This document shows, piece by piece, positions 8,062-52,875 of a DNA stretch of 64,000 bases. The position numbers and the translations under genes are program-made. This DNA comes from a virus. The notes beneath the pieces are model-generated. The model saw nothing but the letters and a program-made list of their open reading frames with translations, was not told the origin of the DNA and made no database searches. The stretch is from positions 13,633-77,632 of IMG/VR virus record IMGVR_UViG_3300035670_008749; one strand, written 5' to 3'. The stretch's first letter is position 1. Each line of letters begins with the position of its first letter.

Positions 8062-10152
8062 ATGGAAAATAACCTAGATTACGTACTGATATTAGAGAAA
8101 TCCTCTCACAACCTTAGCACTAAAAAGCAAGGGGGTGAATATTTTCTTGAAGGTATAGCTGCTGTTTTTGGAGTTGAAAACTCTAATCACAGAATTTATG
8201 AGGAAAATGAATATTTGCCTCATATGGATTATCTTAAAAAGAAAATAGATCAGAATCGTTTAGTTGGTGAGTTAGATCACCCTAAGGAGTTTGATGTTTC
8301 TCTTAAGAACATATCACACGTTATTACAGATCTTTCCTATGATAAAGGAAACAGAAATGTAAAAATCAAAGTTAAACTTCTAGATACACCAGCAGGTAAA
8401 ATTGCTAAAAGTTTAATCGATGCGGGTATTCCTATTTCTATATCTTCTAGAGCAGCTGGTAACGTTAAGGAGAATAAAAAAGTAGAGATTAAGAAAATAT
8501 TTACATATGACTTAGTTGCTGATCCAGGATTTGAAAATGCTCAATTAGAAAGGGTTTATGAAAGTTTAGGATCACATTTACCTTCAGAATCTATTAAAGA
8601 TTCAATTATTTCTTCATTAACCAACATAAATGAAAGTTTTGGACTTAGAAAAAATTCTAACACACAGATATATAGAATAAAAGATACAGAGAAAATCTCT
8701 AGACTTTTAAAAGAAAACACAAATAATTCAAGAAACATGGACAATAACTTTGTCACTGCAGAAGAACTAAACGAATACTCGTTAATCCTTAAAAAAGAAA
8801 TGGATTCATTGAAAAATGAATTAAGATCTGTTTCTAAAGGATCATCTTCTAGATTATCATCTAATAACACAGATTCAGGGTTGGAAGAAAGAATTCAAAG
8901 ATTAGAAAAATATTCTGAGTATCTTGCTGAGAATTTAGAATCTGCTATTAAATATGGAGATTACTTAGCTGAAAATTTAGAAGGATCTATTTCTTATAAT
9001 AAATATTTAGCCGAAAATTTAGATAAGGCTATTTCTTATGCTAAATACTTAGCTGAGCACGTTGATGGAAATATTTCATATTCTGAATACATCGCAGAAA
9101 ATCTTGATAACAATATTGCTTATAGCAAGTATCTTGCTGAGAATTTGGATAAAAATATTTCTTACTCTGAGTACTTAGCAGAAAACCTTGATAAGAACAT
9201 TTCTTACTCCGAATACTTAGCAGAAAACCTTGATAAGAACATTTCTTACTCTGAGTATCTTGCAGAGAATTTGGATAAAAATATTTCTTACTCTGAGTAC
9301 TTAGCAGAAAACCTTGATAAGAACATTTCTTATTCGGATTATTTAGCTGAGAACCTAGATAAGAGTATCACTTACTCTGACTACTTAGGAGAAAAATTAG
9401 ATCAAAACATTACTTACTCTGATTACTTAGGAGAGAAATTAAACGGAAACATTAACTATTCAGATTATATCGCTGAAAAAGTTAAATCTGGAATTGATTA
9501 CACTGAATATTTAGCAGAGTCTATTAATAGAGGAGGAAAAACAACAAGAAAAAATCTTTCTCAAAACGTAAACGAATCTATTAATGAAGGAAGAAGAACT
9601 TCTGGATTCTCTGGAGATTATACAGATCTTTCTTCCAAAGTTGATAAACTTATCGAATCTGTTAGCACAGCAAAAACAGATCAGATTATAAACGAAAATA
9701 AATACTCCTTCTTAAAGCTTGTCGATGACAGAACTAAGAAAGGATTTTTATCTCTGAACGAGGCCGAAAAACAAAAGGTCGTTAAAGCTCTTAACGAGCA
9801 GAACTATAATTCGGGTACGGATGTAGTTCAAATTATGGGATCCGCTTTAACTGAACAAGTTGAGTCTGGAGAAAAATTCCTCGATATGATACCGGGTGAA
9901 TTGGTTCCTGCATGGGAAGGTCTAAATGAATCACAGAGAGCATCTATTATTGCTCAAAGTAAATTCTATAAATTAGACACTGCTTATCAGATCAATCACT
10001 TCTGGAAAACTAGAGGACTTAATTCTGCAAAACCAGCATCTACTGAATTCTTAAACGAATCTCAAAACACTAACCCTAATGCTAACATGGGTGTAAGCAA
10101 CTCTTACATGCAGAATATAGCAGCAGAGTTAGAAAAAAGATTTAAAAAATAA
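8062..10152 (+). CDS. Prohead protease (T4 gp21-like) fused to scaffold (gp22-like)
   Basis: NHRIY, GELDHP, ISH, LLDTPAG, ISSRAAG, TYDLVADPGF, followed by a repeat-rich coiled coil. Confidence 0.92.
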   Translation: MENNLDYVLILEKSSHNLSTKKQGGEYFLEGIAAVFGVENSNHRIYEENEYLPHMDYLKKKIDQNRLVGELDHPKEFDVSLKNISHVITDLSYDKGNRNVKIKVKLLDTPAGKIAKSLIDAGIPISISSRAAGNVKENKKVEIKKIFTYDLVADPGFENAQLERVYESLGSHLPSESIKDSIISSLTNINESFGLRKNSNTQIYRIKDTEKISRLLKENTNNSRNMDNNFVTAEELNEYSLILKKEMDSLKNELRSVSKGSSSRLSSNNTDSGLEERIQRLEKYSEYLAENLESAIKYGDYLAENLEGSISYNKYLAENLDKAISYAKYLAEHVDGNISYSEYIAENLDNNIAYSKYLAENLDKNISYSEYLAENLDKNISYSEYLAENLDKNISYSEYLAENLDKNISYSEYLAENLDKNISYSDYLAENLDKSITYSDYLGEKLDQNITYSDYLGEKLNGNINYSDYIAEKVKSGIDYTEYLAESINRGGKTTRKNLSQNVNESINEGRRTSGFSGDYTDLSSKVDKLIESVSTAKTDQIINENKYSFLKLVDDRTKKGFLSLNEAEKQKVVKALNEQNYNSGTDVVQIMGSALTEQVESGEKFLDMIPGELVPAWEGLNESQRASIIAQSKFYKLDTAYQINHFWKTRGLNSAKPASTEFLNESQNTNPNANMGVSNSYMQNIAAELEKRFKK
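8667..8674 (+). promoter_or_regulatory. Internal late promoter for scaffold + capsid
   Basis: GATATATAGAATAAAA is identical over 16 nt to the intergenic site at 12015; 62 nt before in-frame ATG 8737. Confidence 0.6.
8737..10152 (+). CDS. Putative nested in-frame scaffold protein (MDNNFVTAEE...)
   Basis: In-frame ATG in A-rich context just after the protease domain and the internal promoter. Confidence 0.55.
   Translation: MDNNFVTAEELNEYSLILKKEMDSLKNELRSVSKGSSSRLSSNNTDSGLEERIQRLEKYSEYLAENLESAIKYGDYLAENLEGSISYNKYLAENLDKAISYAKYLAEHVDGNISYSEYIAENLDNNIAYSKYLAENLDKNISYSEYLAENLDKNISYSEYLAENLDKNISYSEYLAENLDKNISYSEYLAENLDKNISYSDYLAENLDKSITYSDYLGEKLDQNITYSDYLGEKLNGNINYSDYIAEKVKSGIDYTEYLAESINRGGKTTRKNLSQNVNESINEGRRTSGFSGDYTDLSSKVDKLIESVSTAKTDQIINENKYSFLKLVDDRTKKGFLSLNEAEKQKVVKALNEQNYNSGTDVVQIMGSALTEQVESGEKFLDMIPGELVPAWEGLNESQRASIIAQSKFYKLDTAYQINHFWKTRGLNSAKPASTEFLNESQNTNPNANMGVSNSYMQNIAAELEKRFKK
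8911..9528 (+). repeat. About 15 tandem 42 bp / 14 aa repeats (YSEYLAENLDKNIS)
   Basis: Directly visible in the translation; identical peptides use different synonymous codons. Confidence 0.95.
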
Positions 10153-10161
10153 TCTAACAAA

Positions 10162-11940
10162 ATGCAACTCTTAAACGAAAACGAGATCTATGAAACATGG
10201 TCTCCAATTATCGAGAGTAAGACCGGTATGACGGATCGTTCAAAGGTAGAGTGGTTATCTAAATATTGCCACTTCCACTCATTAAACGAGTCTGCTGGAG
10301 CTTATAACTCTCTAGGCGTATTAAACGGTATGGGTAACGTACTTCCTGCTGGTAACTACCAAGGTGGTGCAGCTGGTGCGGGTCCTGCTGGTTTCTACTA
10401 CAACAACACTTATGACGCTGGTCGTCCATATGTTGGTTCTGGTGATAAATTCCCATCATTACTTCCATTGGCTATTCAGGTAGCTGCTAAAACCGTTGGT
10501 TTTGACATCGTTCCTGTTATTCCTATGGCTGGTCCTACTGGGGTATTATCTTACCTAGACTATGTATACGCAGGTGGTACATTATCTGGTACATCTACAG
10601 ATTCTTCTACTAACTTCGTAGCTAACACACCGGATATGATTAAAATCCCTACGGCTATTGCTTCTCCAGCAACTGGTCTTACAGTAGGTAATAATTATGC
10701 TATTGGTGTTGGTCTTTCAGGTACTGATGACCCATCAAACGGTGATGCTTTAGCAGTTGGTAAATTTATCGGTAACTCACGTATTGATGGTTTCCCTATC
10801 TTTGAAATCACTATTATTGGTAGCGGAAAATCTATCTCTGATGTTTGTCCTGCTGCTGGTACTGCTGATATCTATGCGGTAACTGGTACTCCTACTAGTT
10901 CTCAAGTAATTATTGGATCTTTAGCAGCTACTACTGCTGGTTCAGCTGTATTAGTTAAAACGTTAGAAGATCACATCCAAGGTTTCTCTGGAGCTGGTCC
11001 TGACAACACTAACGATTGGCAAGGTCCATACGTAGACGGTACTAAAAACTACGATCCTATGTTAAGAGGAGTAGGTGAGACCACTTATTACAAGTCATTA
11101 GGTCTTTCTACTTTCACTAAGTTCGTAGAAGCTGGTACTTTCCAAGTTGCTGCTTCTGTTACTACTGAGCAAATCCAAGACCTTAACAAGCAGTTCGGTA
11201 TCGACGTAGTTTCTATGATCGAGAACGCACTTGTTAACGAGGTTTCTCAAGCTATTAACAAGCACATCTTATCTAGAGCATATGCTCTTGGATGGTCTAA
11301 CCACTCTCAGTTCTTAATCACTGAAAACACAAACCTTAACCTTAACTTAGTAATTGGTGGTGCTGCTACTTATACAGTTCCTAACTACATCGGTAAACAA
11401 GGTACTGCTATCACAGGCGGTTCTAAACCAGGTGCAGTTGCTGGTCCTGCTTCAGGTACTTTCGAGAACTTATCAACAGTTCAAAGAAGACTTTACAGCC
11501 GCATCTTAGCTGCTGCTAACGTAGTTGCTAACAGAGGTCGTAGAGGTCCTGCTAACTTCATCGTTACTAACTCTCAAATCGCGTCTGCTTTACAAGACAT
11601 CAGTCAGTTCACATTCGCTCCGTTTACTAACACACTTACTCAAAACAACGGTACTTTATACCCCGTAGGTTCGCTTGCTGGTATGACAGTATATGTTGAT
11701 CAAAACATGTCATTCGGTGACACTAGAGTATTAGTTGGTAGAAAAGGTGCTGATGATGAGCCAGGTATGAAATTCATGCCTTACATGATGGCTGAGTCAA
11801 TTCAGACTATCTCTGAGGGTACTATGTCTCCTAAAATCGCGGTTAAATCCCGTTACTCTTTAGTTGAGGCTGGTCACCACCCAGAAACAATGTATTTCTG
11901 CTTCCACGTTAACACTGGAACTGCTACTGCTATTATCTAA
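10162..11940 (+). CDS. Major capsid protein, T4 gp23-like
   Basis: VPVIPMAGPTG, TTEQIQDL...GID, RRGPANFIVT, FMPY, PKIAVKSRYSL; strongly biased codon usage. Confidence 0.95.
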   Translation: MQLLNENEIYETWSPIIESKTGMTDRSKVEWLSKYCHFHSLNESAGAYNSLGVLNGMGNVLPAGNYQGGAAGAGPAGFYYNNTYDAGRPYVGSGDKFPSLLPLAIQVAAKTVGFDIVPVIPMAGPTGVLSYLDYVYAGGTLSGTSTDSSTNFVANTPDMIKIPTAIASPATGLTVGNNYAIGVGLSGTDDPSNGDALAVGKFIGNSRIDGFPIFEITIIGSGKSISDVCPAAGTADIYAVTGTPTSSQVIIGSLAATTAGSAVLVKTLEDHIQGFSGAGPDNTNDWQGPYVDGTKNYDPMLRGVGETTYYKSLGLSTFTKFVEAGTFQVAASVTTEQIQDLNKQFGIDVVSMIENALVNEVSQAINKHILSRAYALGWSNHSQFLITENTNLNLNLVIGGAATYTVPNYIGKQGTAITGGSKPGAVAGPASGTFENLSTVQRRLYSRILAAANVVANRGRRGPANFIVTNSQIASALQDISQFTFAPFTNTLTQNNGTLYPVGSLAGMTVYVDQNMSFGDTRVLVGRKGADDEPGMKFMPYMMAESIQTISEGTMSPKIAVKSRYSLVEAGHHPETMYFCFHVNTGTATAII

Positions 11941-14826: not shown

Positions 14827-16848
14827 ATGAGAAACTTCAGTAATAAATTCCTAAGCCTTTTAGAAAGCATGAAATCTTCCAATATGATGATGGAAGATGC
14901 TGCAGGATCAACGGGAGAAAAAACAGGACTTAGAGGTGATAGAACCTCTACTGGTAGATCACAGAAAAGATCAGATCGAAGAGAAGCAAGACTCGAAGAT
15001 AAATTCCTAGATGGCGACAAATTTGTAGTAAGATCATTCATAAAAGCAATAGAGCTATTACAGGGTCAGATATTAGCAACAAGAATAGATGTTTCTAACA
15101 CCATAAAAAATAAATTTGCGGGAGCTAAGTATGGCGACGCATCTCTTAGAGCAGCAGACACTCTTCTTTCTTTAGTTCTAAACATAAAAAGAAGTGCAGA
15201 AAAAATGGCTCAGTCAGAGGGTTCTAGATTGGAGTTAGATGCAAATGCTGCAGATATAAAATTTTACCAGGACGAATACACAAAATATGAGAAGGAATAC
15301 GAGGAGCTAAAAACCCAATGGGCAGATGCACAAAGAAAAGAACAACAGGAACAACCTATTCTCGCAGCAAATCAAAAGATAGAAAAATCATTAAACGTAG
15401 CTAAGGGATTCTTTAAACAAGCTCAGGATGAATTTACTGCTAGTTTTTCACAATTTGTACCTAAAAAGACCGAGGTTAAACAGGATCAACAAGGAGGAGG
15501 AGGAGAACAATTAGAAGCTGGAGGAGATTTAGGAGCAACCTTAGTAGAAAAACCTAAGCCTTTTGTCTACAAAGGAAAAGATGGTGAGATCGTAATGGAG
15601 GTTAAAAAATTAATCTACAATAAATTTAAAAAATATAAGTCAGTTTCCAGTAGCTATGATTGGGGGGTGGTTTATAAGAACTGGCCAGAAGTTAGTGCCA
15701 CATTAAGAGAAAACACCGCTAAGGTTATTAAAGCAATAAAAGCAGGATTAGCAAAGGATCATAAGGATTTAGCTTCAGATAAAACAGGGAGTATTACTCC
15801 TAAATTTTTAGAGATATTAAGAGGAATAAAAGAGGGATTATCGCACAATACAAATAAAATAGTTTCTTTCGAATCTTTTATGAAAAACAGAATCAATGAG
15901 GATTTTGACGAAGAAGCAGCGGGATCAGTACTTTCTTCTGGATCTTCTGGATCTTCCGGGTCTGGTAAAAAATCTTCATCATCGTCTTCATCATCGTCTT
16001 CTCCCTCTTCTCAAAGTGGAAAAAAACAAGCCGAGGCGAATATACCTGCATACCCTGCTACACCTTTTAAAACAGACGAGGAGGGTAACAAGTTTAGAGA
16101 ATGGGTTAATAAAACCTACCCAGACTGGGCAAAAAAGAATAACCTGGATGCTTCTGGTGCCAAGGATAATTCATATATTAGAAAAGCATATGCTGAATAT
16201 GGTAAGGATTATAAACCTAAGTCGGATGCTCCTAAAATCAATATAATGGATAATAAACAATTATCCGCACTTAATGATAAAATTAAAGCAGCCGGAGGTA
16301 AAACAAAATTAGAATTTACTACAGACACTAAAAACCCTGTCATTCTGTTCTACGCTGGAAAAGAGTATGGACATGTATATATTAATTATAGGGTTGATTA
16401 TGTCACTAGCTCCGGATCAAAATTCCTGGGAACATATGATCCTAAAACAAATAATGTAAAATTTGACAACGGAAAAACATTCGATCTTACTAAATGGGTC
16501 ACGACATGTAAAGTAGGAAATAAATTAGCTCCTAGTGAGGTTTCAACCTCACAAGGTAAAAAGGTTTATATGAAACCTTCTAATAATGAAGTTAATGTGA
16601 GAAGCAGCGCTGAAGCTAATACAGGATCAGTAAACAATTTAATATACACGCACAAAGATAAGAGTAAACCTATTGGAATACTTTTGTCTAGCACACTAAC
16701 TAAAAGTTCTAAAATAGGTGATTGGACCTGGTATAAAGTACAATTCCCTTCTTCTATTACATCCGTAGGTGGAGGAGTTTCAGGTCACCCGTATGGTAAA
16801 AAATTCGAATCTGGTTGGGTGAGATCTGACACGGTAGATGTAAAATAA
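14827..16848 (+). CDS. Putative virion protein with C-terminal SH3b-like domain
   Basis: VNVRSSAE...WYKVQF...GWVRSDTV; Ser-rich linker; internal IVSFESFMKNRINE. Confidence 0.6.
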   Translation: MRNFSNKFLSLLESMKSSNMMMEDAAGSTGEKTGLRGDRTSTGRSQKRSDRREARLEDKFLDGDKFVVRSFIKAIELLQGQILATRIDVSNTIKNKFAGAKYGDASLRAADTLLSLVLNIKRSAEKMAQSEGSRLELDANAADIKFYQDEYTKYEKEYEELKTQWADAQRKEQQEQPILAANQKIEKSLNVAKGFFKQAQDEFTASFSQFVPKKTEVKQDQQGGGGEQLEAGGDLGATLVEKPKPFVYKGKDGEIVMEVKKLIYNKFKKYKSVSSSYDWGVVYKNWPEVSATLRENTAKVIKAIKAGLAKDHKDLASDKTGSITPKFLEILRGIKEGLSHNTNKIVSFESFMKNRINEDFDEEAAGSVLSSGSSGSSGSGKKSSSSSSSSSSPSSQSGKKQAEANIPAYPATPFKTDEEGNKFREWVNKTYPDWAKKNNLDASGAKDNSYIRKAYAEYGKDYKPKSDAPKINIMDNKQLSALNDKIKAAGGKTKLEFTTDTKNPVILFYAGKEYGHVYINYRVDYVTSSGSKFLGTYDPKTNNVKFDNGKTFDLTKWVTTCKVGNKLAPSEVSTSQGKKVYMKPSNNEVNVRSSAEANTGSVNNLIYTHKDKSKPIGILLSSTLTKSSKIGDWTWYKVQFPSSITSVGGGVSGHPYGKKFESGWVRSDTVDVK

Positions 16849-16893: not shown

Positions 16894-17430
16894 ATGCCCC
16901 TTATTATTGTAGAAGGCCCCAGAAAATCTGGAAAATCATATCTAATAGAAAATCAAAAAGAACTTCCCGTTTTTAAATTTGATTTTAATTCAAACTTTAC
17001 TGCATGGGATTTTGGTAAACAATCAGAACAAATACATTGGTTTGGATTAGGTAAAGAAGTCATGTTGCACGAATTAAATAATAGCGGATTTTTACCTAAA
17101 ATGCTAGTAGATCGAGGAATACTTACTAATTCAGTATGGGGTGTTTTCCAAGGAAGAGTCACTATAAAACAAGCAGAAGCAGATTTAGTAAATTTTAGTA
17201 GAAGGGGTCTTTTTAAGAATGTGTCTATAGTATTAGTTAGAGGAGAATGGCAAGAAAAAAGAACTAAGGATATTTGGGATCAAGATGATAAAAGAGGCGA
17301 GGAGGAAAGATCCCTTTTTGATAGGTTTTCTTTAGTTTTAAGAGGACTTGGTGTTAATGTGAAGGTCTTTGATAATAAATTCGATTTAGAGTCCGTAGTA
17401 CGCTTTAAACAAGAAATTAGAAATATTTAA
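16894..17430 (+). CDS. P-loop (d)NMP kinase, thymidylate-kinase-like
   Basis: LIIVEGPRKSGKS Walker A and LVDRG motif. Confidence 0.75.
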   Translation: MPLIIVEGPRKSGKSYLIENQKELPVFKFDFNSNFTAWDFGKQSEQIHWFGLGKEVMLHELNNSGFLPKMLVDRGILTNSVWGVFQGRVTIKQAEADLVNFSRRGLFKNVSIVLVRGEWQEKRTKDIWDQDDKRGEEERSLFDRFSLVLRGLGVNVKVFDNKFDLESVVRFKQEIRNI

Positions 17431-17433
17431 AAT

Positions 17434-18849
17434 ATGTGTGGAATATTAGTAGCAAAAAGACCCAGCGAGGAAAGAATTCTATCTATAGCGCATAGGGGAA
17501 TCGAACATAATACAATTTACAAAGATGAGTTATGTCTTGTACATCACAGATTACCTATTCAAACAATAGATGGTGATTCTTGGTCACAGCCTATACAAAT
17601 AGGCGAAGATAGATGGCTTCTTTTTAACGGAGAGATTTTTAATTATGGAGATTATGAATCAGATACAGCATATCTCCAATCCCTTTTCTCTACATTTCAG
17701 TTTGGAGGTCTGGGGATTTTAAAATCCCTATATGACCCACATGTGATTTCTTGGGATGGATTTTGGGCTATAGTTTTAGTTGATACTAAAAAGAGAGAGC
17801 TTTACGCATTTACTGATCCCCTAGGTAAAAAATGTTTATATAGAAATGACAAAGGAGAAATCTGTTCAGAAATAAAAGGACTTTATGAGCCTGACGAAAA
17901 AATGGAGCTAGACTATTCATTTTTTTCAGGGATAACTAAATATGGATATCTTCCCACTGAACAAACACCTTTTTCTAATATTAAAAAATTAGAACCTAAC
18001 AGATTCTATAAATGGAGCTTGGATTACCCCTCAATTGTAGAGATTTCTGATCCTTATTATAATTTTCACTTTTTTGAAGCTGGCTTACAAACATATGACG
18101 ACCGATGTGAATGGCTCTTTGAAAAAATGGAAAAATCAGTAGAAAACAGATTGTTGTCTAAAAATTATCCAACATCACTTCTTTTATCCGGTGGATTAGA
18201 TTCATCAATAATAGCAGGACTTTTGCTTAAACTAGGATCTGATGTAAGCTTTTACTCTATATCTAACGGAGAAGATGAAGACTACGTTAAAGCATGTGAG
18301 TACTATTGGGGAGTAGAGTCAAAAAGATTAGACTACAACATAGATCTTGAAAGTGAAGAAGGTAAAATGGGACTTATAGAGATCTATAAAAAATGGAACG
18401 AATCCCCAGTAGACATGGGAAGTGTAGTTCCACAGTATCATTTATTTGACGCCATTAAGAAAAACTCAAACACTAGGATAGTCATTTCTGGAGATGGTGC
18501 GGATGAATTATTCGGGGGATATCGAAGAATCAATGAGTATGACTCACAGCAGTCCGATATTTTTCATGAGTTGACATACTATCATTTACCAAGATTGGAT
18601 AAATTATCTATGGCACACACATTAGAATTAAGAAGTCCTTTCTTAAATCACGATATAGTTAGATTCGCAATAAATCTTCCTTTCGAGGAAAGAAAGCATA
18701 AAAAAATTCTAAAAGACACATTCAAAGGATTAGTTCCAGATTCAGTTATAGAAAGAAGCAAACTGCCATTGAAAAATAATAAGATTGTAGAGGATCAGAT
18801 AGCTTATAGAAAAGAAATCATTAATCTTTTCTTAGGAGTTTCCGTTTGA
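17434..18849 (+). CDS. asnB: Asparagine-synthetase-B-like glutamine amidotransferase
   Basis: MCGI, FNGEIFNY, LLSGGLDSS, SGDGADELFGGY, LELRSPFL. Confidence 0.9.
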   Translation: MCGILVAKRPSEERILSIAHRGIEHNTIYKDELCLVHHRLPIQTIDGDSWSQPIQIGEDRWLLFNGEIFNYGDYESDTAYLQSLFSTFQFGGLGILKSLYDPHVISWDGFWAIVLVDTKKRELYAFTDPLGKKCLYRNDKGEICSEIKGLYEPDEKMELDYSFFSGITKYGYLPTEQTPFSNIKKLEPNRFYKWSLDYPSIVEISDPYYNFHFFEAGLQTYDDRCEWLFEKMEKSVENRLLSKNYPTSLLLSGGLDSSIIAGLLLKLGSDVSFYSISNGEDEDYVKACEYYWGVESKRLDYNIDLESEEGKMGLIEIYKKWNESPVDMGSVVPQYHLFDAIKKNSNTRIVISGDGADELFGGYRRINEYDSQQSDIFHELTYYHLPRLDKLSMAHTLELRSPFLNHDIVRFAINLPFEERKHKKILKDTFKGLVPDSVIERSKLPLKNNKIVEDQIAYRKEIINLFLGVSV

Positions 18850-20325
18850 TTTAACTATATTAACACCTGCGATAGGATCGCCTTTAGCATCCTTAGGTGA
18901 ATATCCCTCGGGTCTATCAGTAAGTACGAAGTCTTCTGAAGGATCTACCACTAAACCAGCAGCACTAAGGAAGTCCCTATTTAACAAAAGAGGGGTACTT
19001 TTTTCTGTTCTATCAACTAAAGAAAATTTAACTTTCTTGTAAACAATTCCATTGAAGTCTACGTCAAGATTAACAACTGCTCTTTTGTGTATTTTTTCAC
19101 CAACCTCTGCTTTAGATTGACCTACTATTTTATTAGTAAATTCTTGATTTCCTAGTTTCCAATGAACACTTCCGTCGACTTCTTCTATGCTATCAGCGTG
19201 TAAGCTACAAGAAGTAGCTCCGTTTCCTGTATCAAGTTTACCTACAAAAGTGCCTATACCTGAAATAGTAATCATTTCTCTAAATCCAGTGATTTTTTTA
19301 GGCTTAACCCAGTTTTTCTTGTCTAATAAGAAATCTACAACCATGTCGGTTACTGGTATATCTGTTGTTTTTTCTATTCCAGTTGTTCCAGGGGAAGCAT
19401 TAACTTCTAAAACATAAGGTTTTTCTTCTCCGTCTCCGTCTCTTGTTTTTTCGACTATTATATCAACCCCGCACCATAAACATCCAGTAGCTTTTGCAGA
19501 TTCAATAGCTATTTTTTCTATGTTCTCGCTCAGCTTTACTTTTTCTGTATCTCCTCCAAGTGAGAAATTAGTTCTAAAATCCCCCTTTATTTTTATTCTT
19601 TTCATAGCTGCTATGACCTTGTATTCTCTACCAGCCATACCATCACTTTCTGCAACAACGTGTATTCTTAAATCGTAATCTGCATCTATTTTTTCTTGTA
19701 GTACTATTTCAGTTCCAGGGGACAAATACCAAAGTGCCTGTAGAGTAGAAACTAATGAAGGTCTAGAATCTATCATAAAAACACCAATCCCTTTAGTTCC
19801 GGATAAGAATTTACAAACAACTGGATATTCTCCGCCAACTTCCTCTACTGCCTTGTCTATATCTGCCTCAGATGATATTAGTGATGTTCTAGGAACAGGT
19901 ATTTTAGCTAACTGAAGTTTTCTTGTGGTTTGTAATTTGTCTTCGCACATGATAACAGAATCATACGAATTAACACAAGGAAACCCTAAATCTTCCATTT
20001 TCTTAAAAAATCCCTTAGCTGCGTTATTTTTAATAGAAGATCTCCTAGTTAAAACTATTGTTCTGTCTAAATATATTTCTTGTTGTTTTCCTCCCCTACT
20101 AGAGATTAGGAAAGTACCTTTATTTGTTTTTTGTATAGCACCTTTTTCTGTGTCTATTATTATACATCTAACACCCCTTTCCTCACAGATTTTCATTATT
20201 TTATCAGTGCTTGGAGCATTCTTTAAACTTTTACCAAGTTTAGTAGTTAAGATAACTACGGTTAAGGGTCTTTCCTTTCCTTTTATACCTTTAAAAACAA
20301 ACTTTTCTAATAATGAAGAATCCAT
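18832..20325 (-). CDS. rimK: RimK-family ATP-grasp ligase fused to a RimB-type retropepsin-like protease
   Basis: DKLQT, GTKGIGV, LQEKI, DLRIHV, FRTNFSLGG, GVDII, LEVNASPG; then GFRE, KLDTG, SLHA, LVDR, LLLNRDFL. Start moved from TTG 20346 to ATG 20325 because the promoter lies at 20330-20337. Confidence 0.9.
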   Translation of the reverse strand: MDSSLLEKFVFKGIKGKERPLTVVILTTKLGKSLKNAPSTDKIMKICEERGVRCIIIDTEKGAIQKTNKGTFLISSRGGKQQEIYLDRTIVLTRRSSIKNNAAKGFFKKMEDLGFPCVNSYDSVIMCEDKLQTTRKLQLAKIPVPRTSLISSEADIDKAVEEVGGEYPVVCKFLSGTKGIGVFMIDSRPSLVSTLQALWYLSPGTEIVLQEKIDADYDLRIHVVAESDGMAGREYKVIAAMKRIKIKGDFRTNFSLGGDTEKVKLSENIEKIAIESAKATGCLWCGVDIIVEKTRDGDGEEKPYVLEVNASPGTTGIEKTTDIPVTDMVVDFLLDKKNWVKPKKITGFREMITISGIGTFVGKLDTGNGATSCSLHADSIEEVDGSVHWKLGNQEFTNKIVGQSKAEVGEKIHKRAVVNLDVDFNGIVYKKVKFSLVDRTEKSTPLLLNRDFLSAAGLVVDPSEDFVLTDRPEGYSPKDAKGDPIAGVNIVKSNGNS

Positions 20326-20329
20326 AATG

Positions 20330-20337
20330 TATATATC
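20330..20337 (-). promoter_or_regulatory. Late promoter GATATATA
   Basis: Between the minus-strand terminator and ATG 20325. Confidence 0.65.
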
Positions 20338-20344
20338 TTTAAAC

Positions 20345-20376
20345 AAAGAAAAAGCCCAGATTTTAATCTAGGCTTT
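20345..20376 (-). terminator. Rho-independent terminator
   Basis: Minus strand AAAGCCTAGATT-AA-AATCTGGGCTTT then TTCTTT, downstream of the acidic protein gene. Confidence 0.8.
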
Positions 20377-20402
20377 AATTTATTATAGTCTTTTGTTTAA
20401 TC

Positions 20403-21047
20403 TTATTTTCCAAAGAAATTATCGAACCTTATAACCTCAGTACCTGTGGATTCTTCTCCTAAATCAGATTCGTCCTCCTCCTCGATCTCTTCCTCCTCGT
20501 CATCATCTTCATCCTCATCAAAATCCATATCATCTTCCTCCTCGTCTTCATCTTCGTCGTCATCTTCTTCGGAGTCCTCGTCCTCGTCCTCGTCTTCGTC
20601 CTCTTCTTCGAAGTCCATTTCTTCGTCCTCATCCTCGTCCTCGTCCTCTTCTTCGTCCTCATCCTCGTCTTCTTCAGAGTCTTCGTCCTCTTCTTCGTCC
20701 TCATCCTCGTCCTCGTCCTCTTCTTCGTCCTCTTCTTCGTCCTCATCCTCGTCTTCTTCAGAGTCTTCGTCCTCTTCTTCGTCCTCTTCTTCGTCCTCAT
20801 CCTCGTCTTCGTCCTCTTCTTCGTCCTCATCCTCGTCTTCGTCCTCTTCTTCGAAGTCCATTTCTTCGTCTTCTTCAGAGTCTTCGTCCTCGTCTTCGTC
20901 CTCGTCTTCGTCCTCTTCTTCGAAGTCCATTTCTTCGTCTTCTTCCTCCTCTTCTATCTCCATATCGTTCCAGAAGTCGTTATCTTCAGGTAGTTCTTGA
21001 GGCTTTTTATAGCTAAATTCCTCAAATGTTAATATTTTTTTATCCAT
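20403..21047 (-). CDS. Extremely acidic Asp/Glu low-complexity protein
   Basis: About 165 central residues are almost all D/E with a recurring EMDFEEEDEDE unit. Normal termini, A-rich start, terminator downstream. Confidence 0.8.
   Translation of the reverse strand: MDKKILTFEEFSYKKPQELPEDNDFWNDMEIEEEEEDEEMDFEEEDEDEDEDEDEDSEEDEEMDFEEEDEDEDEDEEEDEDEDEDEEEDEEEDEDSEEDEDEDEEEDEEEDEDEDEDEEEDEDSEEDEDEDEEEDEDEDEDEEMDFEEEDEDEDEDEDSEEDDDEDEDEEEDDMDFDEDEDDDEEEEIEEEDESDLGEESTGTEVIRFDNFFGK
20465..20960. repeat. Imperfect (TCN)n triplet tract with higher-order units
   Basis: TCTTCGTCCTCATCCTCG-type units repeated; encodes poly-D/E on the minus strand. Confidence 0.9.
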
Positions 21048-21059
21048 CTTTTTGATTTT

Positions 21060-21311
21060 TTATTCTGTTACTCCTATAGAAGCTCCGCTTCCTGTTTCAG
21101 TTGCGCCGTATCCAGGGTAGTCTATTTTAGATGTTTTATTAAAAACTGCATCTTTGTATCCTACATAGTCATATGCAGACTCTGGTGTAATTTTATGAAA
21201 TCCTGTTCTATCCTCTTTGCTAAGATTGTCAGGATTCCATGGATCACTTGCTACTTTCATAAAATCTTTGTAGCTTAGTATTTCTCTTTTTTTTACGTTT
21301 CTTTGGTTCAT
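21060..21311 (-). CDS. Small hypothetical late protein
   Basis: EILSYKDFMK leader-like motif; co-oriented with its neighbours. Confidence 0.7.
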   Translation of the reverse strand: MNQRNVKKREILSYKDFMKVASDPWNPDNLSKEDRTGFHKITPESAYDYVGYKDAVFNKTSKIDYPGYGATETGSGASIGVTE

Positions 21312-21313
21312 AA

Positions 21314-22051
21314 TTACTTATTGAATTGTAGAACACTGGATAAACCAGATTTCATTGCTTTTGTATATATATCAGGATTTCTTTCGCCAGCTGCTTGTAT
21401 TTCATTTTGAATTTTTTGCTTGTCTGCAGTTGTCACGCTAGAGGTTGATAATACATCACCTAGTTTAAATCCACATATTTTATCAGAAATCATTTTTTCA
21501 ATATTGTTCATGAAGTTAGTGTTATTGATAGCATTAGTTAAAGCCTCCCTTAATCCTGCTGCTATAGTTCCACCAAATCCAGTATTAGTATCTAATTGCA
21601 TACCTAATCGTGGTAATAAATATTCTATTCCTCTTTCTTGTAATGTTTCAGATAAACCTTCTACTATAGCTACCGACCAGTTCTTACATGAGCCAGATCC
21701 GAAATATTTACCTAGATCTGTCCAATGCACCTGCTCGATTACGTTTCTTATTACTTGATAAAAGAATGTGGGCTGTCCGTTCTCGTCCATTGGATTAATA
21801 CCAAATTTTTGAGCCGCCCAGTCTATAATATAATCTTTGAAAGTATCTGTAAAACCTCCTCCTAAGGAGCTAAAAAATGAGGTAAATATATTTTCATTTA
21901 TTTCACTCTCAGTAAGTCCCTCTGATTGCATTCTAAGATATTCGTTTTCTAGCATTGCCATTTCTTCTCTGTAATGACCTATGCCTAAATTACGTCCCTT
22001 AGATCCGTTTCTGGACTCTGATATAAATTTTGAATAACTACGAATAACCAT
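21314..22051 (-). CDS. Hypothetical late/virion protein
   Basis: MVIRSYSKFISE leader, INE motif, late promoter upstream. Confidence 0.7.
   Translation of the reverse strand: MVIRSYSKFISESRNGSKGRNLGIGHYREEMAMLENEYLRMQSEGLTESEINENIFTSFFSSLGGGFTDTFKDYIIDWAAQKFGINPMDENGQPTFFYQVIRNVIEQVHWTDLGKYFGSGSCKNWSVAIVEGLSETLQERGIEYLLPRLGMQLDTNTGFGGTIAAGLREALTNAINNTNFMNNIEKMISDKICGFKLGDVLSTSSVTTADKQKIQNEIQAAGERNPDIYTKAMKSGLSSVLQFNK
21366..21373 (-). promoter_or_regulatory. Late promoter GATATATA inside the upstream gene
   Basis: 54 nt upstream of minus-strand ATG 21311. Confidence 0.45.
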
Positions 22052-22069: not shown

Positions 22070-22104
22070 TATATATCGTTTTATCTTAAAGAATCCGATA
22101 TATA
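22070..22104. promoter_or_regulatory. Back-to-back divergent GATATATA promoters
   Basis: Minus copy at 22070-22077 and plus copy at 22097-22104 in one 60 nt divergent gap. Confidence 0.8.
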
Positions 22105-23929: not shown

Positions 23930-24553
23930 ATGAGCCCCCAGTTTTTAGTTATAGCATATTACACAGAAAACACTTCGTACGAAGCACTCGCAGGCAATCT
24001 TAAAAGATCCCTGCAGAACTTTAGTTTGGCTCATTACATAGAGCCTATCAAAGATTTAGGATCTTGGGAAAAAAATACACATCACAAGGCTTATTTTATT
24101 AAAGAAATATTAGAGTCAAGAAACCAAGATGTTTTATATGTAGATGTAGATGCACAATTTAAATCTTATCCCGATCTTATTCCAAATCTTGACTGCGACA
24201 TAGCATACAGAACTCAAGATTTTAAATGGAGAGCAGATGAAGCTTTATCAGGTACATTATTCTTGAAAAACAATGATCGTGTGAGATCATTCGTTGATAG
24301 ATGGATAGAATTAAATGAAGCAACTCCAGCTGAAAGAATGAAGCCAGAAACATGGGAACAAAAAAATATGCAGAGGGCACATAGAGAAATGGAAGATCTT
24401 GTTTATTATAATCTTCCACCCGAATATACATTTATTTACGATCACATGCGTACGATGTATCCTCGTACGTCACCCGTCATAGAGCATTACCAGGAATCGA
24501 GAAATGTACACAGAAAAATGAATCAAAATTCTAATTTTAGAGTAAGAAGATAG
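23930..24553 (+). CDS. GT-A nucleotide-diphospho-sugar transferase
   Basis: VLYVDVDA DxD motif, LSGTLF, WEQ, LPPEY. Confidence 0.8.
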   Translation: MSPQFLVIAYYTENTSYEALAGNLKRSLQNFSLAHYIEPIKDLGSWEKNTHHKAYFIKEILESRNQDVLYVDVDAQFKSYPDLIPNLDCDIAYRTQDFKWRADEALSGTLFLKNNDRVRSFVDRWIELNEATPAERMKPETWEQKNMQRAHREMEDLVYYNLPPEYTFIYDHMRTMYPRTSPVIEHYQESRNVHRKMNQNSNFRVRR

Positions 24554-24554
24554 T

Positions 24555-25292
24555 ATGAAATTAGAATATGCTGTAGTTAGCTCTAACTCTAATCCTGAGT
24601 ATCTTGATTTTTGGCCATATGTAGCTAAGGCATGGAAGAATTTGATAGGATTAGAACCGGTTCTTCTTTATATAGACAATGCAGCACCCCCTGCTTGGGT
24701 TTATGAACACGGTAAGGTTTTTTATTTGGAATCAAGAAATGATTGGGACATTGCACAACAGGCACAATGTATTAGATTCTGGGCGGCAAACATACTGGAT
24801 AAGCCATTTATCATATCCGATATGGATATGCTCCCTATCTCCAAGGATTACTATATAAATCACGCTGAGTATATAGGAGACACTGGACTAATATCGTATA
24901 GTTCAGATATTATTAAATATAGATGGTATAGGACTAATCCACAATATCCAATGTGCTATCTTGCGGGAGATCCAAAAAGTTTTTCAGATCTTCTAGATTT
25001 GAATGAAGAAAGTCATTTGGATTTTCTTCTAAGATTGAAAAGAATGAATCTGCGAAGTGGGACTGATCAGAAGTTTTTTTATAATCAAACCCTAAGAAAA
25101 TCTGGATACTATATTAGACATCTTGAGAGAGGCTGGATAGAAGAAAAATATGCTACTGGTAGGTTGGATAAGGTAATATGGCCTAAAAACGACTATAATG
25201 CACACGAATATATAGATTGTCACTTACCAAGACCCTTATCGGCTAATCTTGGTATGTGTAAAGAATTATTTAATAAGCTTAAAATAGATTGA
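24555..25292 (+). CDS. Putative GT-A glycosyltransferase
   Basis: ISDMDMLP DxD motif, TDQ, DCHLPRP; operon context. Confidence 0.6.
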   Translation: MKLEYAVVSSNSNPEYLDFWPYVAKAWKNLIGLEPVLLYIDNAAPPAWVYEHGKVFYLESRNDWDIAQQAQCIRFWAANILDKPFIISDMDMLPISKDYYINHAEYIGDTGLISYSSDIIKYRWYRTNPQYPMCYLAGDPKSFSDLLDLNEESHLDFLLRLKRMNLRSGTDQKFFYNQTLRKSGYYIRHLERGWIEEKYATGRLDKVIWPKNDYNAHEYIDCHLPRPLSANLGMCKELFNKLKID

Positions 25293-26095
25293 TGAGATTA
25301 TCTATAATACTTCCAACAGGTGGAAATGATCATTTAAGAAATAGGAATTTTAATGAATGCTTATCTGCTATAAAGAATCAAACCTTTACTGATTACGAGG
25401 TAATAGTGGTGGAACAGGCATTAGATGGTAATTTTTATAAAAGAAGTAACCCTATAATACCATATAAGCACATAGCAATAAAAGACCCGCAAAACAGAGG
25501 ATTCAATCTTAGCTGGTGTAGAAACGTAGGAGCGAGAGAGGCTAATGGAGAGCTAATAGTTTTGATGGATTCAGACTTCGTGTTTGAAAATAATTATTTT
25601 ACAGTTATAAGCCAATTTGCAGGTGAATTTGCAGCAGGTGCAGAAACATACTATTGGTGTAATACCGAAGAGGCAACTATGGATTGGATTAGAACTAAAA
25701 ATTTTGATGTCTTTAGAAAAAGAGGAGGAGAGCCCAGGGATCCGGTATTTAAATTTAGATCAATGACTAGGGGATGTGGATTCGGAGCTATCTTGGTTTA
25801 TAACAAAGATTGGTTTTGGAACGTATTCGGTGGATATAACGAGAATTTCTTTAGGTATGGATGGGAAGATAAAGCAGCAACAGAAACAATAAAATTCTTG
25901 CTTAAAAGAAGTGACGAAACGATGGATAGGATTCCTTATGAAGCTGCACATTTAAGCCACAGGTCTAAGGATGTAAGAAATATTAATCTAAACGAAAAGC
26001 TTTTTAATGATTTTACTAATATGGATCAGAATGATTTAGTTAGTAAAATAAAGGAAGTAGGAGTAGGAAAAAAATCTAATCCGAGCACGATATGA
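25292..26095 (+). CDS. GT2/GT7-like glycosyltransferase
   Basis: VIVVEQ, FNLSWCRNVG, MDSD, GGYNENFFRYGWED. ATG overlaps the upstream TGA. Confidence 0.85.
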   Translation: MRLSIILPTGGNDHLRNRNFNECLSAIKNQTFTDYEVIVVEQALDGNFYKRSNPIIPYKHIAIKDPQNRGFNLSWCRNVGAREANGELIVLMDSDFVFENNYFTVISQFAGEFAAGAETYYWCNTEEATMDWIRTKNFDVFRKRGGEPRDPVFKFRSMTRGCGFGAILVYNKDWFWNVFGGYNENFFRYGWEDKAATETIKFLLKRSDETMDRIPYEAAHLSHRSKDVRNINLNEKLFNDFTNMDQNDLVSKIKEVGVGKKSNPSTI

Positions 26096-27012
26096 CAGAA
26101 AGAAGAAAAAGAAATATAACCCCGCAAGGATTTAAAAGAATATTAAATAGATTTCCTCCTGCTCCTTCCGTGGTAATAAAAAATAATGAAAATATATCTA
26201 ATAAAGAATTAGGTAATAAGAGTGAAGTAAATGTTGTACCTAAAGAAGAAAGAGATAACATGAATAATTATTATGAATTATATAATGACTATGAGGATGA
26301 TCCTAAAAAATATAATGTAAGTGTGGGATTTCTTATAGTAGCAACAGGAAAATATGATGTATTTATAGAGCCACTAATAAGATCAATAGAGAAATATTTT
26401 CTTCCTAATAACAAGAAGTTTTATAATATTTTTAGCGATAAGGATCTTTCATTTAAAAACATTGATTATTCTGTGTTTCCGGTGGAACATAAACCATTTC
26501 CTTACCCTACATTGTATAGATTTCACTTTTTTGAAAAATATAAAGAATCAATAAAAGGAGATCAACTTATTTATATAGATGCTGATACATTAATTACGTC
26601 ATCTATTGGAACAGAAGTTATAACACCTATTACTGTTACACAGCATTGCGGGTATGTTAATCGATGGGGGACTTTTGAAAATAGAACGGAGTCTAAATGC
26701 TTCGTTAGTAGAATGGATGGAAGAAATTATTATGGCGGGGGATTTTATTCGTTATCGAGAGACGAGTTTTTTAAGATGAGTTCGGAATGTAAAGAGATGA
26801 TAGATTGGGAATCTAATAAAGGGAGAGTACCTATTTGGCACGATGAATCTGCTTTAAATAAATATTTAACAATAGTAAAACCAACTAGGGTTCTTAGCCC
26901 TTCGTATCATTATCCGGAAGACAACCAAAAAATTTATTCATCGTGGGGGAACAATAAATTTGAATGTAAAATACTTTTATTAAACAAAGACCATAAAGAA
27001 ATAAGATCATGA
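26092..27012 (+). CDS. GT6 alpha-1,3-Gal/GalNAc transferase (ABO-type)
   Basis: IVATGKY, YIDAD, YYGGGF, WHDESALNKY, LSPSY, K-x-H-x-x-x-R C-terminus. Confidence 0.9.
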   Translation: MTERRKRNITPQGFKRILNRFPPAPSVVIKNNENISNKELGNKSEVNVVPKEERDNMNNYYELYNDYEDDPKKYNVSVGFLIVATGKYDVFIEPLIRSIEKYFLPNNKKFYNIFSDKDLSFKNIDYSVFPVEHKPFPYPTLYRFHFFEKYKESIKGDQLIYIDADTLITSSIGTEVITPITVTQHCGYVNRWGTFENRTESKCFVSRMDGRNYYGGGFYSLSRDEFFKMSSECKEMIDWESNKGRVPIWHDESALNKYLTIVKPTRVLSPSYHYPEDNQKIYSSWGNNKFECKILLLNKDHKEIRS

Positions 27013-27626
27013 GAATAGCATTAATATCTTTTCACAAAAACATAAGTAGATATCCCACAGAATGGATAGAAAAATACAGGGAATCAATAATAAATCAAAC
27101 GCATAAGGATTTTGATATATTTGAATTAAACTACGGTAATAGTGAGGAAAGAATATTTGAAAATAGTGAATTTATATCACTGAATCTTAATGATCATGCC
27201 CAAGCTCATAATTATCTGATTGAAAAATGCTTTAGTTTAAATTATGATATGGTATTAAATACCAATGTTGATGATCGATATCCATTAGACAGAGTAAAAA
27301 TACAGATAGATAATTTTAATCCCGAGATTTCTGTTATGTCTGGAAACTATGTTTCTTTTAGTGAAACAAGAGAAAATATACACTGTACAAAATTCCATGA
27401 GCTTGATATTTCTAAAGAATTTTTTAACAATCATAATATAGTTGCTCATCCTGCATGTGCTTATACTAAGAAAATGCTAGAATACAATGAAAAACTAATA
27501 TCTGAAGAAATTGCATCTGATGATTTTTGTATGTGGAAAAGGCTTTTATCCAAAGGGGCTAAATTTAAAATACTACCTAATGTACTTCTATACTATCGGA
27601 TAAGTGAACTTAAAACAAAATCGTAA
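27009..27626 (+). CDS. GT2-like glycosyltransferase
   Basis: SIINQT, NVDD, VAHPA, DDFCMW, LLYYR. Confidence 0.8.
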   Translation: MRIALISFHKNISRYPTEWIEKYRESIINQTHKDFDIFELNYGNSEERIFENSEFISLNLNDHAQAHNYLIEKCFSLNYDMVLNTNVDDRYPLDRVKIQIDNFNPEISVMSGNYVSFSETRENIHCTKFHELDISKEFFNNHNIVAHPACAYTKKMLEYNEKLISEEIASDDFCMWKRLLSKGAKFKILPNVLLYYRISELKTKS

Positions 27627-27629
27627 AAT

Positions 27630-28250
27630 ATGATAAACGATATATTCAAAGAAAATGTAAAAAAGTGGTTTAAAGATAAAGGTGATGTGTACAAAAGATT
27701 AGATTATCCAGAGTTAAATGAAAATTCCGTGGTATTTGATGTTGGTGGGTATTTGGGAACATTTGCCGAGTCTATTTATACTCGATACGGATCTAATATT
27801 TATTTATTTGAGCCTGTCGATGAGTTTTATCATGCTTGTAATTTTAAATTTAATCACCTTTCCAAGATAAGAAACTATAAGTTCGGTTTATCTAGTAATA
27901 ATACTATCTCTAATATTTATATTTCAGATGACGCTAGCTCTATCACGTATATAGATGATGCTAATATTGAATCTATAGAATTAAGGGATATAATAGAAGT
28001 AATAAGGGAATTAAATATAGATTCTGTTGATTTAATTAAGATTAACATAGAAGGTGAAGAATATAATCTATTAGAAAAACTCGTATCTGATGTGGATTTA
28101 TTAAAAAAAGTAAAAAATATACAAGTACAATATCACACTTTTATTCATGACGCAGAGGAAAGAAGAAAAAGCATAAATGAATCATTAAAAAATACCCACG
28201 AATGTACATGGTGCTATGATTGGGTTTGGGAGAACTGGAAATTAAAATAG
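27630..28250 (+). CDS. FkbM-family methyltransferase
   Basis: FDVGGYLG, FEP, IKINIEGEE. Confidence 0.88.
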   Translation: MINDIFKENVKKWFKDKGDVYKRLDYPELNENSVVFDVGGYLGTFAESIYTRYGSNIYLFEPVDEFYHACNFKFNHLSKIRNYKFGLSSNNTISNIYISDDASSITYIDDANIESIELRDIIEVIRELNIDSVDLIKINIEGEEYNLLEKLVSDVDLLKKVKNIQVQYHTFIHDAEERRKSINESLKNTHECTWCYDWVWENWKLK

Positions 28251-28251
28251 G

Positions 28252-28839
28252 ATGTTTTATTCACAAGCAGGACAGGATAAATGGGTTTTAGAAAAAACAA
28301 ATTCTAAAAAAAATGGATATTTTTTAGATATAGGTGCTTATGATGGAATTAATTATAGTAATACCTTATATTTTGAAAAGTATTTAAGTTGGAATGGTGT
28401 ATGTATAGAGCCAGATCTAAAAAATTATCAATTACTTGTTAAAAATAGGGACTGTATATGTGAAAACGTTGCAGTTAGCAATTTCAAAGGAAAAGTACCT
28501 TTTAGCAGTTCTGAAATGGGTAGCAAAATAAATGATTCCTATGATTATTTTATAGAATGTGATACACTAGAAAATATATTGATTAAAAATAATGCACCTC
28601 TATTTATAGATTATTTATCGATAGATGTTGAGGGTAGTGAGATAGCTATAATAGAAAATTTTCCTTTTAATAATTGGAAATTTGGAGCTATTACTATAGA
28701 GCATAATCTATATTCTGATGGTGACTATAGAAAAAAAGAAATACAAAAAATACTTACAAGTAACGGATATGTTATAGACAAAGAAAACGTAACTCATAAC
28801 GGTTTACCTTTTGAAGATTGGTACATCATTAAAAAATAA
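28252..28839 (+). CDS. FkbM-family methyltransferase
   Basis: YSQAGQD, LDIGAYDG, SNT, IEP, LSIDVEGSE. Confidence 0.9.
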   Translation: MFYSQAGQDKWVLEKTNSKKNGYFLDIGAYDGINYSNTLYFEKYLSWNGVCIEPDLKNYQLLVKNRDCICENVAVSNFKGKVPFSSSEMGSKINDSYDYFIECDTLENILIKNNAPLFIDYLSIDVEGSEIAIIENFPFNNWKFGAITIEHNLYSDGDYRKKEIQKILTSNGYVIDKENVTHNGLPFEDWYIIKK

Positions 28840-28841
28840 AT

Positions 28842-30493: not shown

Positions 30494-30495
30494 TT

Positions 30496-31194: not shown

Positions 31195-31198
31195 AAAA

Positions 31199-33542: not shown

Positions 33543-33546
33543 AAAA

Positions 33547-37520: not shown

Positions 37521-37530
37521 AAATATAAAT

Positions 37531-52855: not shown

Positions 52856-52875
52856 CAATGATAAACCCAAATAAC

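Follow-up and report, generated by a model that had tools for sequence, protein, structure and literature searches.

A RimK-RimB-like fusion gene and its acidic neighbour in the T4-type head region of a large freshwater myovirus

We analysed a 64-kb stretch of viral DNA (hereafter the window), taken from a 77.6-kb IMG/VR virus record (IMGVR_UViG_3300035670_008749; CheckV completeness 26%), for a gene that fuses a RimK-type glutamate ligase to a RimB-like protease and for the poly-Asp/Glu gene beside it. The source phage is a large myovirus with a T4-type head system. It encodes both a gp21-type head maturation protease and a gp23-type major capsid protein (PF03420 and PF07068, Table 1), and baseplate genes lie further along the window than these two. 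The nearest relatives of the capsid protein belong to Lak, Tenacibaculum, Chryseobacterium and Flavobacterium phages and to Sphingomonas phage PAU, so that a Bacteroidota-type host appears likely. A megablast comparison of a 10-kb region with cultured phages gave no match. Inside the otherwise plus-strand head region lies a minus-strand island of four genes, which encode the proteins p245 and p83, an acidic protein and the fusion.

An earlier reading of the same DNA, made from its letters alone (the sequence-only reading), had described a complete RimK ATP-grasp domain joined to an Asp-Thr-Gly (DTG) retropepsin, and this description is borne out on both sides of the junction. The RimK domain matches Pfam PF08443 over residues 135-338 (1.6e-37; 129 bits against a cut-off of 21) and the NCBIfam family rimK_fam, TIGR00768 (152.4 bits against a cut-off of 143.4). 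A profile built from 14 homologues found the RimK structures of Pseudomonas and of E. coli (1e-39 to 1e-42), and an AlphaFold2 model of the fusion, with a predicted local distance difference test score (pLDDT) of 83, superposes on RimK from the same two organisms with template-modelling (TM) scores of 0.82-0.87. Foldseek aligned this model to 7qys, 7qyr, 5zct and 4iwx with E-values from 3e-23 to 6e-21, and the TM score to 7qys is 0.87. For the C-terminal domain, the single-sequence match to PF05618 is marginal (28.1 bits against a cut-off of 27). The 14-homologue profile reached the RloA retropepsins 9g58 and 9g59 at 1.7e-6, and a separate model of the domain (pLDDT 88) retrieved Lpg0085 (2pma), RloA2 and RloA (9g59, 9g58) at 2e-8 to 9e-7, followed by HIV-1 protease. 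The motif K-x-D-T-G-N-G is invariant in two alignments of the fusion family. Judged from sequence, both catalytic domains look intact. The domain order is RimK then RimB, and not that of a RimBK protein, in which RimB is N-terminal to RimK; the fusion would work in the manner of RimBK without sharing its architecture.

The open reading frame (ORF) listed for the fusion, 18832-20346 on the minus strand, is present. Because its TTG start at 20346 sits within the U-run of the upstream terminator, and because the ATG at 20325 (MDSSLLEKF...) is the start common to all relatives, the true start is probably ATG 20325. The promoter-like motif GATATATA that stands just before this ATG is also found ahead of p245, of the head-protease gene and of two further ORFs (at 12039 and 14270). 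Its overall enrichment is mild (12 found, 7.25 expected), and we infer the late timing of its genes from the genes that it precedes.

The poly-Asp/Glu gene immediately upstream is a real gene encoding 214 aa, separated from the fusion by a terminator, as had been noted before. Its product is 76% Asp/Glu, with a longest Glu run of 5. All relatives whose fusion is at least 55% identical have the acidic gene with the same start context and the conserved N-terminus KKILSFEEF...FW.D. The C-terminus is tag-like, with VIRFDNFF kept down to ~66% identity and NPAFNxFFN or ESFDDYF found in the 55-58% clade. Between these ends, the acid tract changes freely: its length ranges over 155-277 aa, and its repeat unit is EDED with DDMDLE, TEEESDEE, DTEEE or TEDTAD. 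These tracts mix D, E, S and T, and their longest Glu run is anywhere from 2 to 11 residues, depending on the orthologue. We considered whether the ORF is an artefact of the repeat, which reads as a poly-Ser ORF on the opposite strand and as K/R/T in another frame. This was rejected since only the D/E frame has conserved, in-frame, non-repetitive ends, and since these ends persist across relatives whose repeat units differ. The acidic protein is a disordered polyanion held by conserved, tag-like ends. As a separate observation, its C-terminus RVIRFDNFF (at 20403-20435 of the window, and at loci L125-L127) is similar to the final beta-strand of Bacteroidota S6 (ERIIRFGTF or RVIRFLTT), which directly precedes the tail on which RimK acts in other bacteria; the resemblance is too short to judge and may be due to chance.

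Table 1. Features of the fusion locus and of the head-gene region (window positions)
Feature	Position	Strand	Details
Head maturation protease, Peptidase_S77 (T4 gp21 type)	8062..10152	+	long C-terminal extension; PF03420 40.3 bits against a cut-off of 27
Major capsid protein, Gp23 family	10162..11940	+	PF07068 136 bits; N-terminal ...SPIIE/S site
RimK-RimB-like fusion gene	18832..20325	-	497 aa + stop; start ATG 20325 probable
RimB/RloA-like retropepsin domain, PF05618 (formerly DUF785)	18886..19287	-	aa ~347-480; Pfam, profile and model matches
Catalytic Asp-Thr-Gly motif (D365 T366 G367)	19225..19233	-	invariant in the fusion family
RimK-type ATP-grasp alpha-L-glutamate ligase domain	19306..20193	-	aa ~45-340; TIGR00768, PF08443, profile matches to RimK structures in the Protein Data Bank (PDB), Foldseek
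Fusion N-terminal 13 residues, MDSSLLEKFVFKG	20287..20325	-	degenerate remnant of a tag like the T4 capsid-targeting sequence (CTS); F9 and V10 kept, cleavage Glu replaced by Lys
GATATATA promoter-like motif	20330..20337	-	4 nt before the fusion ATG; same motif precedes head genes
Intrinsic terminator hairpin	20351..20376	-	11-bp stem then T-run; folding z = -4.9; ends the p245-p83-acidic transcription unit
Acidic disordered protein gene	20403..21047	-	214 aa; 99 E, 64 D; net charge -157; N-terminus KKILTFEEF (CTS-like) and C-terminus EVIRFDNFFGK, both conserved
p83, conserved small protein	21060..21311	-	transcribed together with the acidic gene; ILSYKDF at the N-terminus; most relatives end in Glu
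p245, first gene of the p245-p83-acidic unit	21314..22051	-	full tag IRSYSKFISE/S
GATATATA motif upstream of p245	22070..22077	-	likely promoter of the p245-p83-acidic unit

The fusion is a member of a widespread phage RimK-DUF785 family, whose folds, catalytic motifs and phage-wide distribution are shown by the analysis. A protein search gave at least 271 clusters at 90% identity; the hits listed are mostly ~490 aa long and about half of them have both Pfam domains. At least 549 viral stretches in an IMG/VR scan encode the fusion, on contigs of 80-430 kb. An exhaustive search gave 142 clusters at 50% identity (E<=1e-30), most of which align in one stretch over both domains in the order seen here, with some being polyproteins of 600-1300 aa. 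Among 185,579 prokaryote species, represented by one genome each, the full fusion was found only on a few contigs of metagenome-assembled genomes (MAGs), mostly in Bacteroidota bins. The cultured carriers are the Yersinia phages YerA41 and GN1 and the Pelagibacter phage Mosig. The window's own gene, a RimK with a C-terminal DUF785 on a phage contig, is nearer to the phage copies than to cellular RimK. This architecture is not new. Phage RimK with a C-terminal DUF785 was described in 2008 by Monier, Claverie and Ogata from ocean metagenomes, together with a proposed role in S6 modification and translation (PMC2530865), and the sequence-only reading had overlooked that the fusion belongs to this abundant, long-known phage enzyme family. 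RimK and a RimB-type protease form an experimentally characterised writer/eraser pairing (PMC7343187, PMC11957791). Little et al. (2025) showed RimB to be a retropepsin specific for oligo-Glu and also described a bacterial hybrid, RimBK, in which the two domains stand in reverse order (PMC11957791). What the window adds is the synteny, in two clades, of a motif-bearing polyanion with the fusion, and not a new kind of system.

We read the gene neighbourhoods from 78 related IMG/VR loci and placed the fusions on a midpoint-rooted tree (MAFFT and FastTree, without support tests). Each of the 22 distinct members that make up the window's clade has the p245-p83-acidic block directly upstream of its fusion. 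At two loci (L026 and L027) the block is inverted as one unit, and the acidic gene is thereby shown to move together with p245 and p83. In a second, distant clade the fusion is 39-43% identical to the window's and all other neighbours differ. Here, a disordered ORF of 84-182 aa, either acidic or rich in acidic residues, is found ~180-310 nt downstream in convergent orientation to the fusion, and ends in RVLSFEDFF, RVMRFEDFV or RVLSYTDFF. The C-terminal motif occurs in 37 of the 1139 ORFs at these loci, and 36 of the 37 are within 56-313 nt of the fusion. In total, 44 of the 78 loci have the acidic gene adjacent to the fusion, in two separate clades and in differing orientations. On the tree, clades that have no acidic partner next to the fusion come between the two that do, and YerA41 and Mosig likewise have none beside it. 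The linkage on which the sequence-only reading depended is therefore found in relatives without being universal, and the acidic gene is a frequent, not an obligate, genomic partner of the fusion. On its other side, the fusion of the window meets a tight plus-strand gene pair (16894-18849), made up of a P-loop kinase-like gene (16894-17430, 178 aa, no family match) and an AsnB-type glutamine amidotransferase (17434-18849, 471 aa). The two genes converge on the fusion, with an 18-nt overlap at its 3' end; the pair stands beside the fusion in all relatives of at least 55% identity and is absent from beside it in all clades below 50%.

The internal proteins IPII and IPIII of phage T4, as well as Alt, carry a CTS, are processed by gp21 and are ejected with the DNA. 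IPII and IPIII start with MKTYQEFIAEA, as read from the T4 record, and T4 genetics assigned targeting to residues 4 and 7 and processing to residues 8 and 10 (PMC9026906). The N-termini of distant fusions read KSYEDFLNEAK, LNFFSFLNEAK, YFDQFVLNEAK and similar. The corresponding pattern, [FYW]..[FYW][ILVMF].E, begins within the first 19 residues in 91 of the 1031 proteins from related loci, compared with an internal frequency of 2.2e-4 per position. Most family members carry it, with 31 of the 46 fusions below 50% identity matching, and the sequence-only reading had passed over it. In the window, the full tag is found in p245 and in p185 (IFSFDQFINE/S), and phi-x-Glu sites are found in the capsid protein, p864, p180 and p673. 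The acidic protein (ILTFEEF) and p83 contain the aromatic part of the tag without the Glu site. Cleavage of the phi-x-Glu tags is expected of the gp21-type protease of the window. Gene position lends independent support to packaging, as one clade has its fusion 4-5 kb behind the protease and capsid genes. At the protein level, g112 of YerA41, a fusion homologue annotated as 'Ribosomal protein modification protein', was marked as particle-associated in LC-MS/MS data (PMC7354516).

Two further arrangements were seen at related loci. Several distant loci (L041:10201-12238 and others) have arrays of 4-5 consecutive small genes, each starting with a full tag (IPSFEEFLNES and similar); these arrays look like a diversifying head-cargo set comparable to the T-even internal-protein loci. 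In the clade with the fusion after the capsid gene, a 790-860-aa acid-rich protein (21-24% D/E) is encoded between the two (L035:2977-5454, L037 and L086). In L035 and L037 its C-terminus is the tag-like YQFLI[SN]E, and it may be a scaffold.

The fusion and the acidic gene fit best as part of a T4-style set of head cargo and core proteins, rather than as a proven enzyme-substrate pair, and we hold this with about even confidence. We place the fusion among head cargo because the family tag matches that of T4 IPII/IPIII, because gp21- and gp23-type genes are present, because its gene is situated within the head module or next to it and because one homologue was found in purified virions. The tag match is one of spacing and chemistry, with an aromatic residue, a second aromatic at +3, a hydrophobic residue at +4 and Glu at +6. 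The protein itself would be an ATP-dependent alpha-L-glutamate ligase fused to a RimB-type retropepsin that, by analogy, trims or cuts oligo-glutamate and may stimulate the ligase, and it would be expressed with the head genes. The acidic neighbour is best read as a gp67-like acidic protein of the head core or cargo. The sequence-only reading did not mention that T4 has a poly-D/E head-core protein of its own, gp67 (PIP), whose C-terminal half is poly-D/E and follows a FLIE/G site; the acidic gene of the window likewise encodes a poly-Asp/Glu tract in a protein of the head module. The simplest link between fusion and acidic protein would then be a shared destination and shared timing. Packaging of the fusion family in heads is well suggested. 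For the window's own fusion protein the chances are about evenly balanced, because its tag is degenerate and the cleavage Glu is lost.

Several points weigh against placing the two proteins in the head. In the window's clade, the fusion N-terminus LLEKFVFKG is without the first aromatic and the Glu and falls outside the tag pattern; only i+3 and i+4 are kept, these being the family-invariant Phe and the hydrophobic residue that follows it. The analogy to the T4 tag rests on a 7-residue pattern, and packaging in this phage is a prediction. The YerA41 virion list also holds polymerases, helicases and ribonucleotide reductase, which makes it non-specific, and the fusion homologue in YerA41 is a middle gene and not a late one (PMC7354516). 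Homology between the acidic protein and gp67 cannot be established, both being of low complexity. Finally, the acidic adjacency is kept in two distant clades despite rearrangement, which points to something more specific than a shared destination.

Such a link would be given if the acidic protein were the working partner of the fusion in a dedicated polyanion system. The RimB domain might cut the acid tract, which the phi-x-Glu protease cannot cut, and so clear a polyanionic core from the prohead, or RimK might extend Glu-terminated fragments; alternatively, the acid tract could be a product-mimic that holds the enzyme inactive until delivery. The adjacency is consistent with this, as it is kept in two clades whose fusions are ~39-42% identical, in three gene orders and with all other neighbours differing. 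Proteases of the gp21 type leave a C-terminal Glu, the kind of end that RimK extends. Furthermore, RimB can cut internal oligo-Glu (PMC11957791). However, the characterised RimB requires at least 6 contiguous Glu residues and did not cut Asp or mixed tails (PMC11957791), compared with a longest run of 5 in the window and with orthologous tracts that differ widely both in maximum run and in repeat (EDED, TEEESDEE, TEDTAD). The acidic gene is also transcribed separately, behind a strong terminator and with a separate promoter-like motif before the fusion; in L026 and L027 it moves with p245 and p83 and not with the fusion, and it is missing from beside the fusion in the intermediate clades, YerA41 and Mosig. 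These findings leave little support for the acidic neighbour as the protease substrate, as the sequence-only reading had suggested. An enzyme-substrate or enzyme-regulator relation is possible, and we consider a dedicated system, or indeed any specific partnership of the two proteins (substrate, regulator or co-assembled pair), unlikely. A capsid-internal version, in which a co-packaged RimK extends Glu ends and RimB digests an acidic filler, or in which the polyanion is delivered as a nucleic-acid mimic, seems to us quite improbable. The head protease would here leave thousands of Glu-terminated fragments while being unable to cut a pure acid tract, and the RimK and RimB activities would adjust or remove the negative charge of the prohead core, either before the DNA is packaged or while this happens.

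A different proposal, made by the sequence-only reading and earlier by Monier et al. (PMC2530865), looks to the host ribosome. The fusion would be a cytoplasmic or injected writer/eraser that adds glutamates to host S6 and removes them, taking over translation alongside a phage S1-domain protein. S6 is the only proven protein substrate of RimK, and RimB trims S6 tails (PMC7343187, PMC11957791). The fusion domains are closest to true RimK structures, and the phage does encode a 375-aa protein in which three S1 RNA-binding domains all score above their Pfam cut-off, at 52858-53985 on the plus strand, among tail and baseplate genes. Against this, the capsid-protein relatives indicate Bacteroidota hosts, and S6 ends in KS, KS, KS, EEA and KEG, and not in Glu, in five Bacteroidota MAGs that hold related contigs, a weak argument for a phage whose host is only presumed. 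The bacterial RimBK hybrid, moreover, gave no glutamylation of RpsF in vitro (PMC11957791). Host S6 is thus a doubtful ligase acceptor for Bacteroidota-type hosts, and we regard this proposal as rather unlikely. The late proteins that had been put forward as other acceptors do end in Glu in the three cases cited, but 8 of the ~75 ORFs in all end in this way, which is about the number expected by chance. The idea that one polypeptide builds and trims acidic tails is partly right on its writer/eraser chemistry, with domains that look intact, while it overreached on the substrate and on S6 and missed the head-cargo context.

We consider it very improbable that the fusion acts on a small molecule or a free polymer, making either free poly-alpha-glutamate or a short Glu peptide that is amidated by the convergent AsnB-like amidotransferase. 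Such a pathway would resemble the way in which an ATP-grasp enzyme and an amidotransferase together make N-acetylglutaminylglutamine amide. RimB stimulates poly-alpha-Glu synthesis by RimK (PMC11957791), the AsnB-like and P-loop genes stay convergent to the fusion among its closer relatives, and there are weak NCBIfam matches to the 'trio' families TIGR03103 and TIGR03104. These matches lie far below the cut-offs, however, and the generic RimK and AsnB models score much better; the pair is also on the opposite strand from the fusion and is not beside it in any of the more distant clades. We dropped a role in peptide-type hypermodification of DNA, an idea taken from the 1-kDa thymidine adduct of YerA41, as the adduct is reported to be oligosaccharide-like (PMC9023294) and nothing links the enzyme to DNA.

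Other genes of the window touch on the head and on YerA41. The gene for p673 (14827-16848, plus strand) encodes a basic protein (net charge +25) with an N-terminal NFSNKFLSLLE/S site, a Ser-rich linker and a C-terminal region that is kept in relatives, and p673 is a candidate basic internal head protein. When the proteins encoded nearby were compared by net charge, no evident basic partner of the acidic protein emerged apart from p673. The head protease has ~470 residues beyond its S77 domain, with an internal GATATATA at 8667, and a nested scaffold gene could be present. Further along (23930-38151, plus strand) lie ~18 co-oriented genes, and the N-termini of some resemble sugar-nucleotide enzymes (GDP-mannose dehydratase and KdsA types) and glycosyltransferases, as read from the N-terminal sequences alone. 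YerA41 likewise pairs its RimK fusion with sugar-nucleotide genes and with an oligosaccharide-like thymidine modification.

RimK-RimB fusions are among the commonest 'cellular' enzymes of large aquatic phages. The window adds one more member to the family and a sharper view of its link to an acidic neighbour. Three points stand out: the T4-like head-loading tag in most copies, the canonical S6 acceptors that are seemingly missing in likely hosts, and the recurrent polyanion neighbour with a fixed C-terminal motif. If the fusion proves to be an injected effector or to act inside the head, protein glutamylation would have a role that is new to virus biology.

Compared with known systems, the window is closest in architecture to the family of Monier et al., which has more than 100 homologues, the same order of RimK ATP-grasp and PF05618/DUF785, and T4-like phage contigs; that study treated DUF785 as a domain of unknown function and remarked neither on the tag at the N-terminus nor on an association with virions or an acidic neighbour (PMC2530865). 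The window, in contrast, comes from a freshwater, Bacteroidota-type large myovirus, and its fusion is only 32-35% identical to the cultured examples. With Pseudomonas RimK/RimB (rimABK) and with RimBK of Desulfotalea psychrophila it shares the two catalytic modules, namely the RimK fold (TM 0.87) and the PF05618 retropepsin with its DTG motif. The domains follow the order opposite to that of RimBK, with RimK at the N-terminus in place of RimB, and further differences are the absence of RimA, the neighbourhood of phage head genes, a doubtful S6 acceptor and an activity that is predicted from sequence. With T4 IPII/IPIII and Alt, the likeness is that the N-termini of the fusion family match MKTYQEFIAE at positions 4, 7, 8 and 10 in a phage with gp21- and gp23-type genes. 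There is no homology beyond this tag, which is degenerate in the window's fusion, and the packaging data are limited to the non-specific proteomics of YerA41. Lastly, T4 gp67, an acidic protein of the prohead core from which acidic internal peptides derive, has in common with the acidic protein a long, genetically encoded Asp/Glu tract next to a phi-x-Glu site and a place in the head module. gp67 is 80 aa long with a tract of ~35 residues, whereas the acidic protein of the window is 214 aa long, with a tract of ~150 residues and tag-like motifs at both ends.

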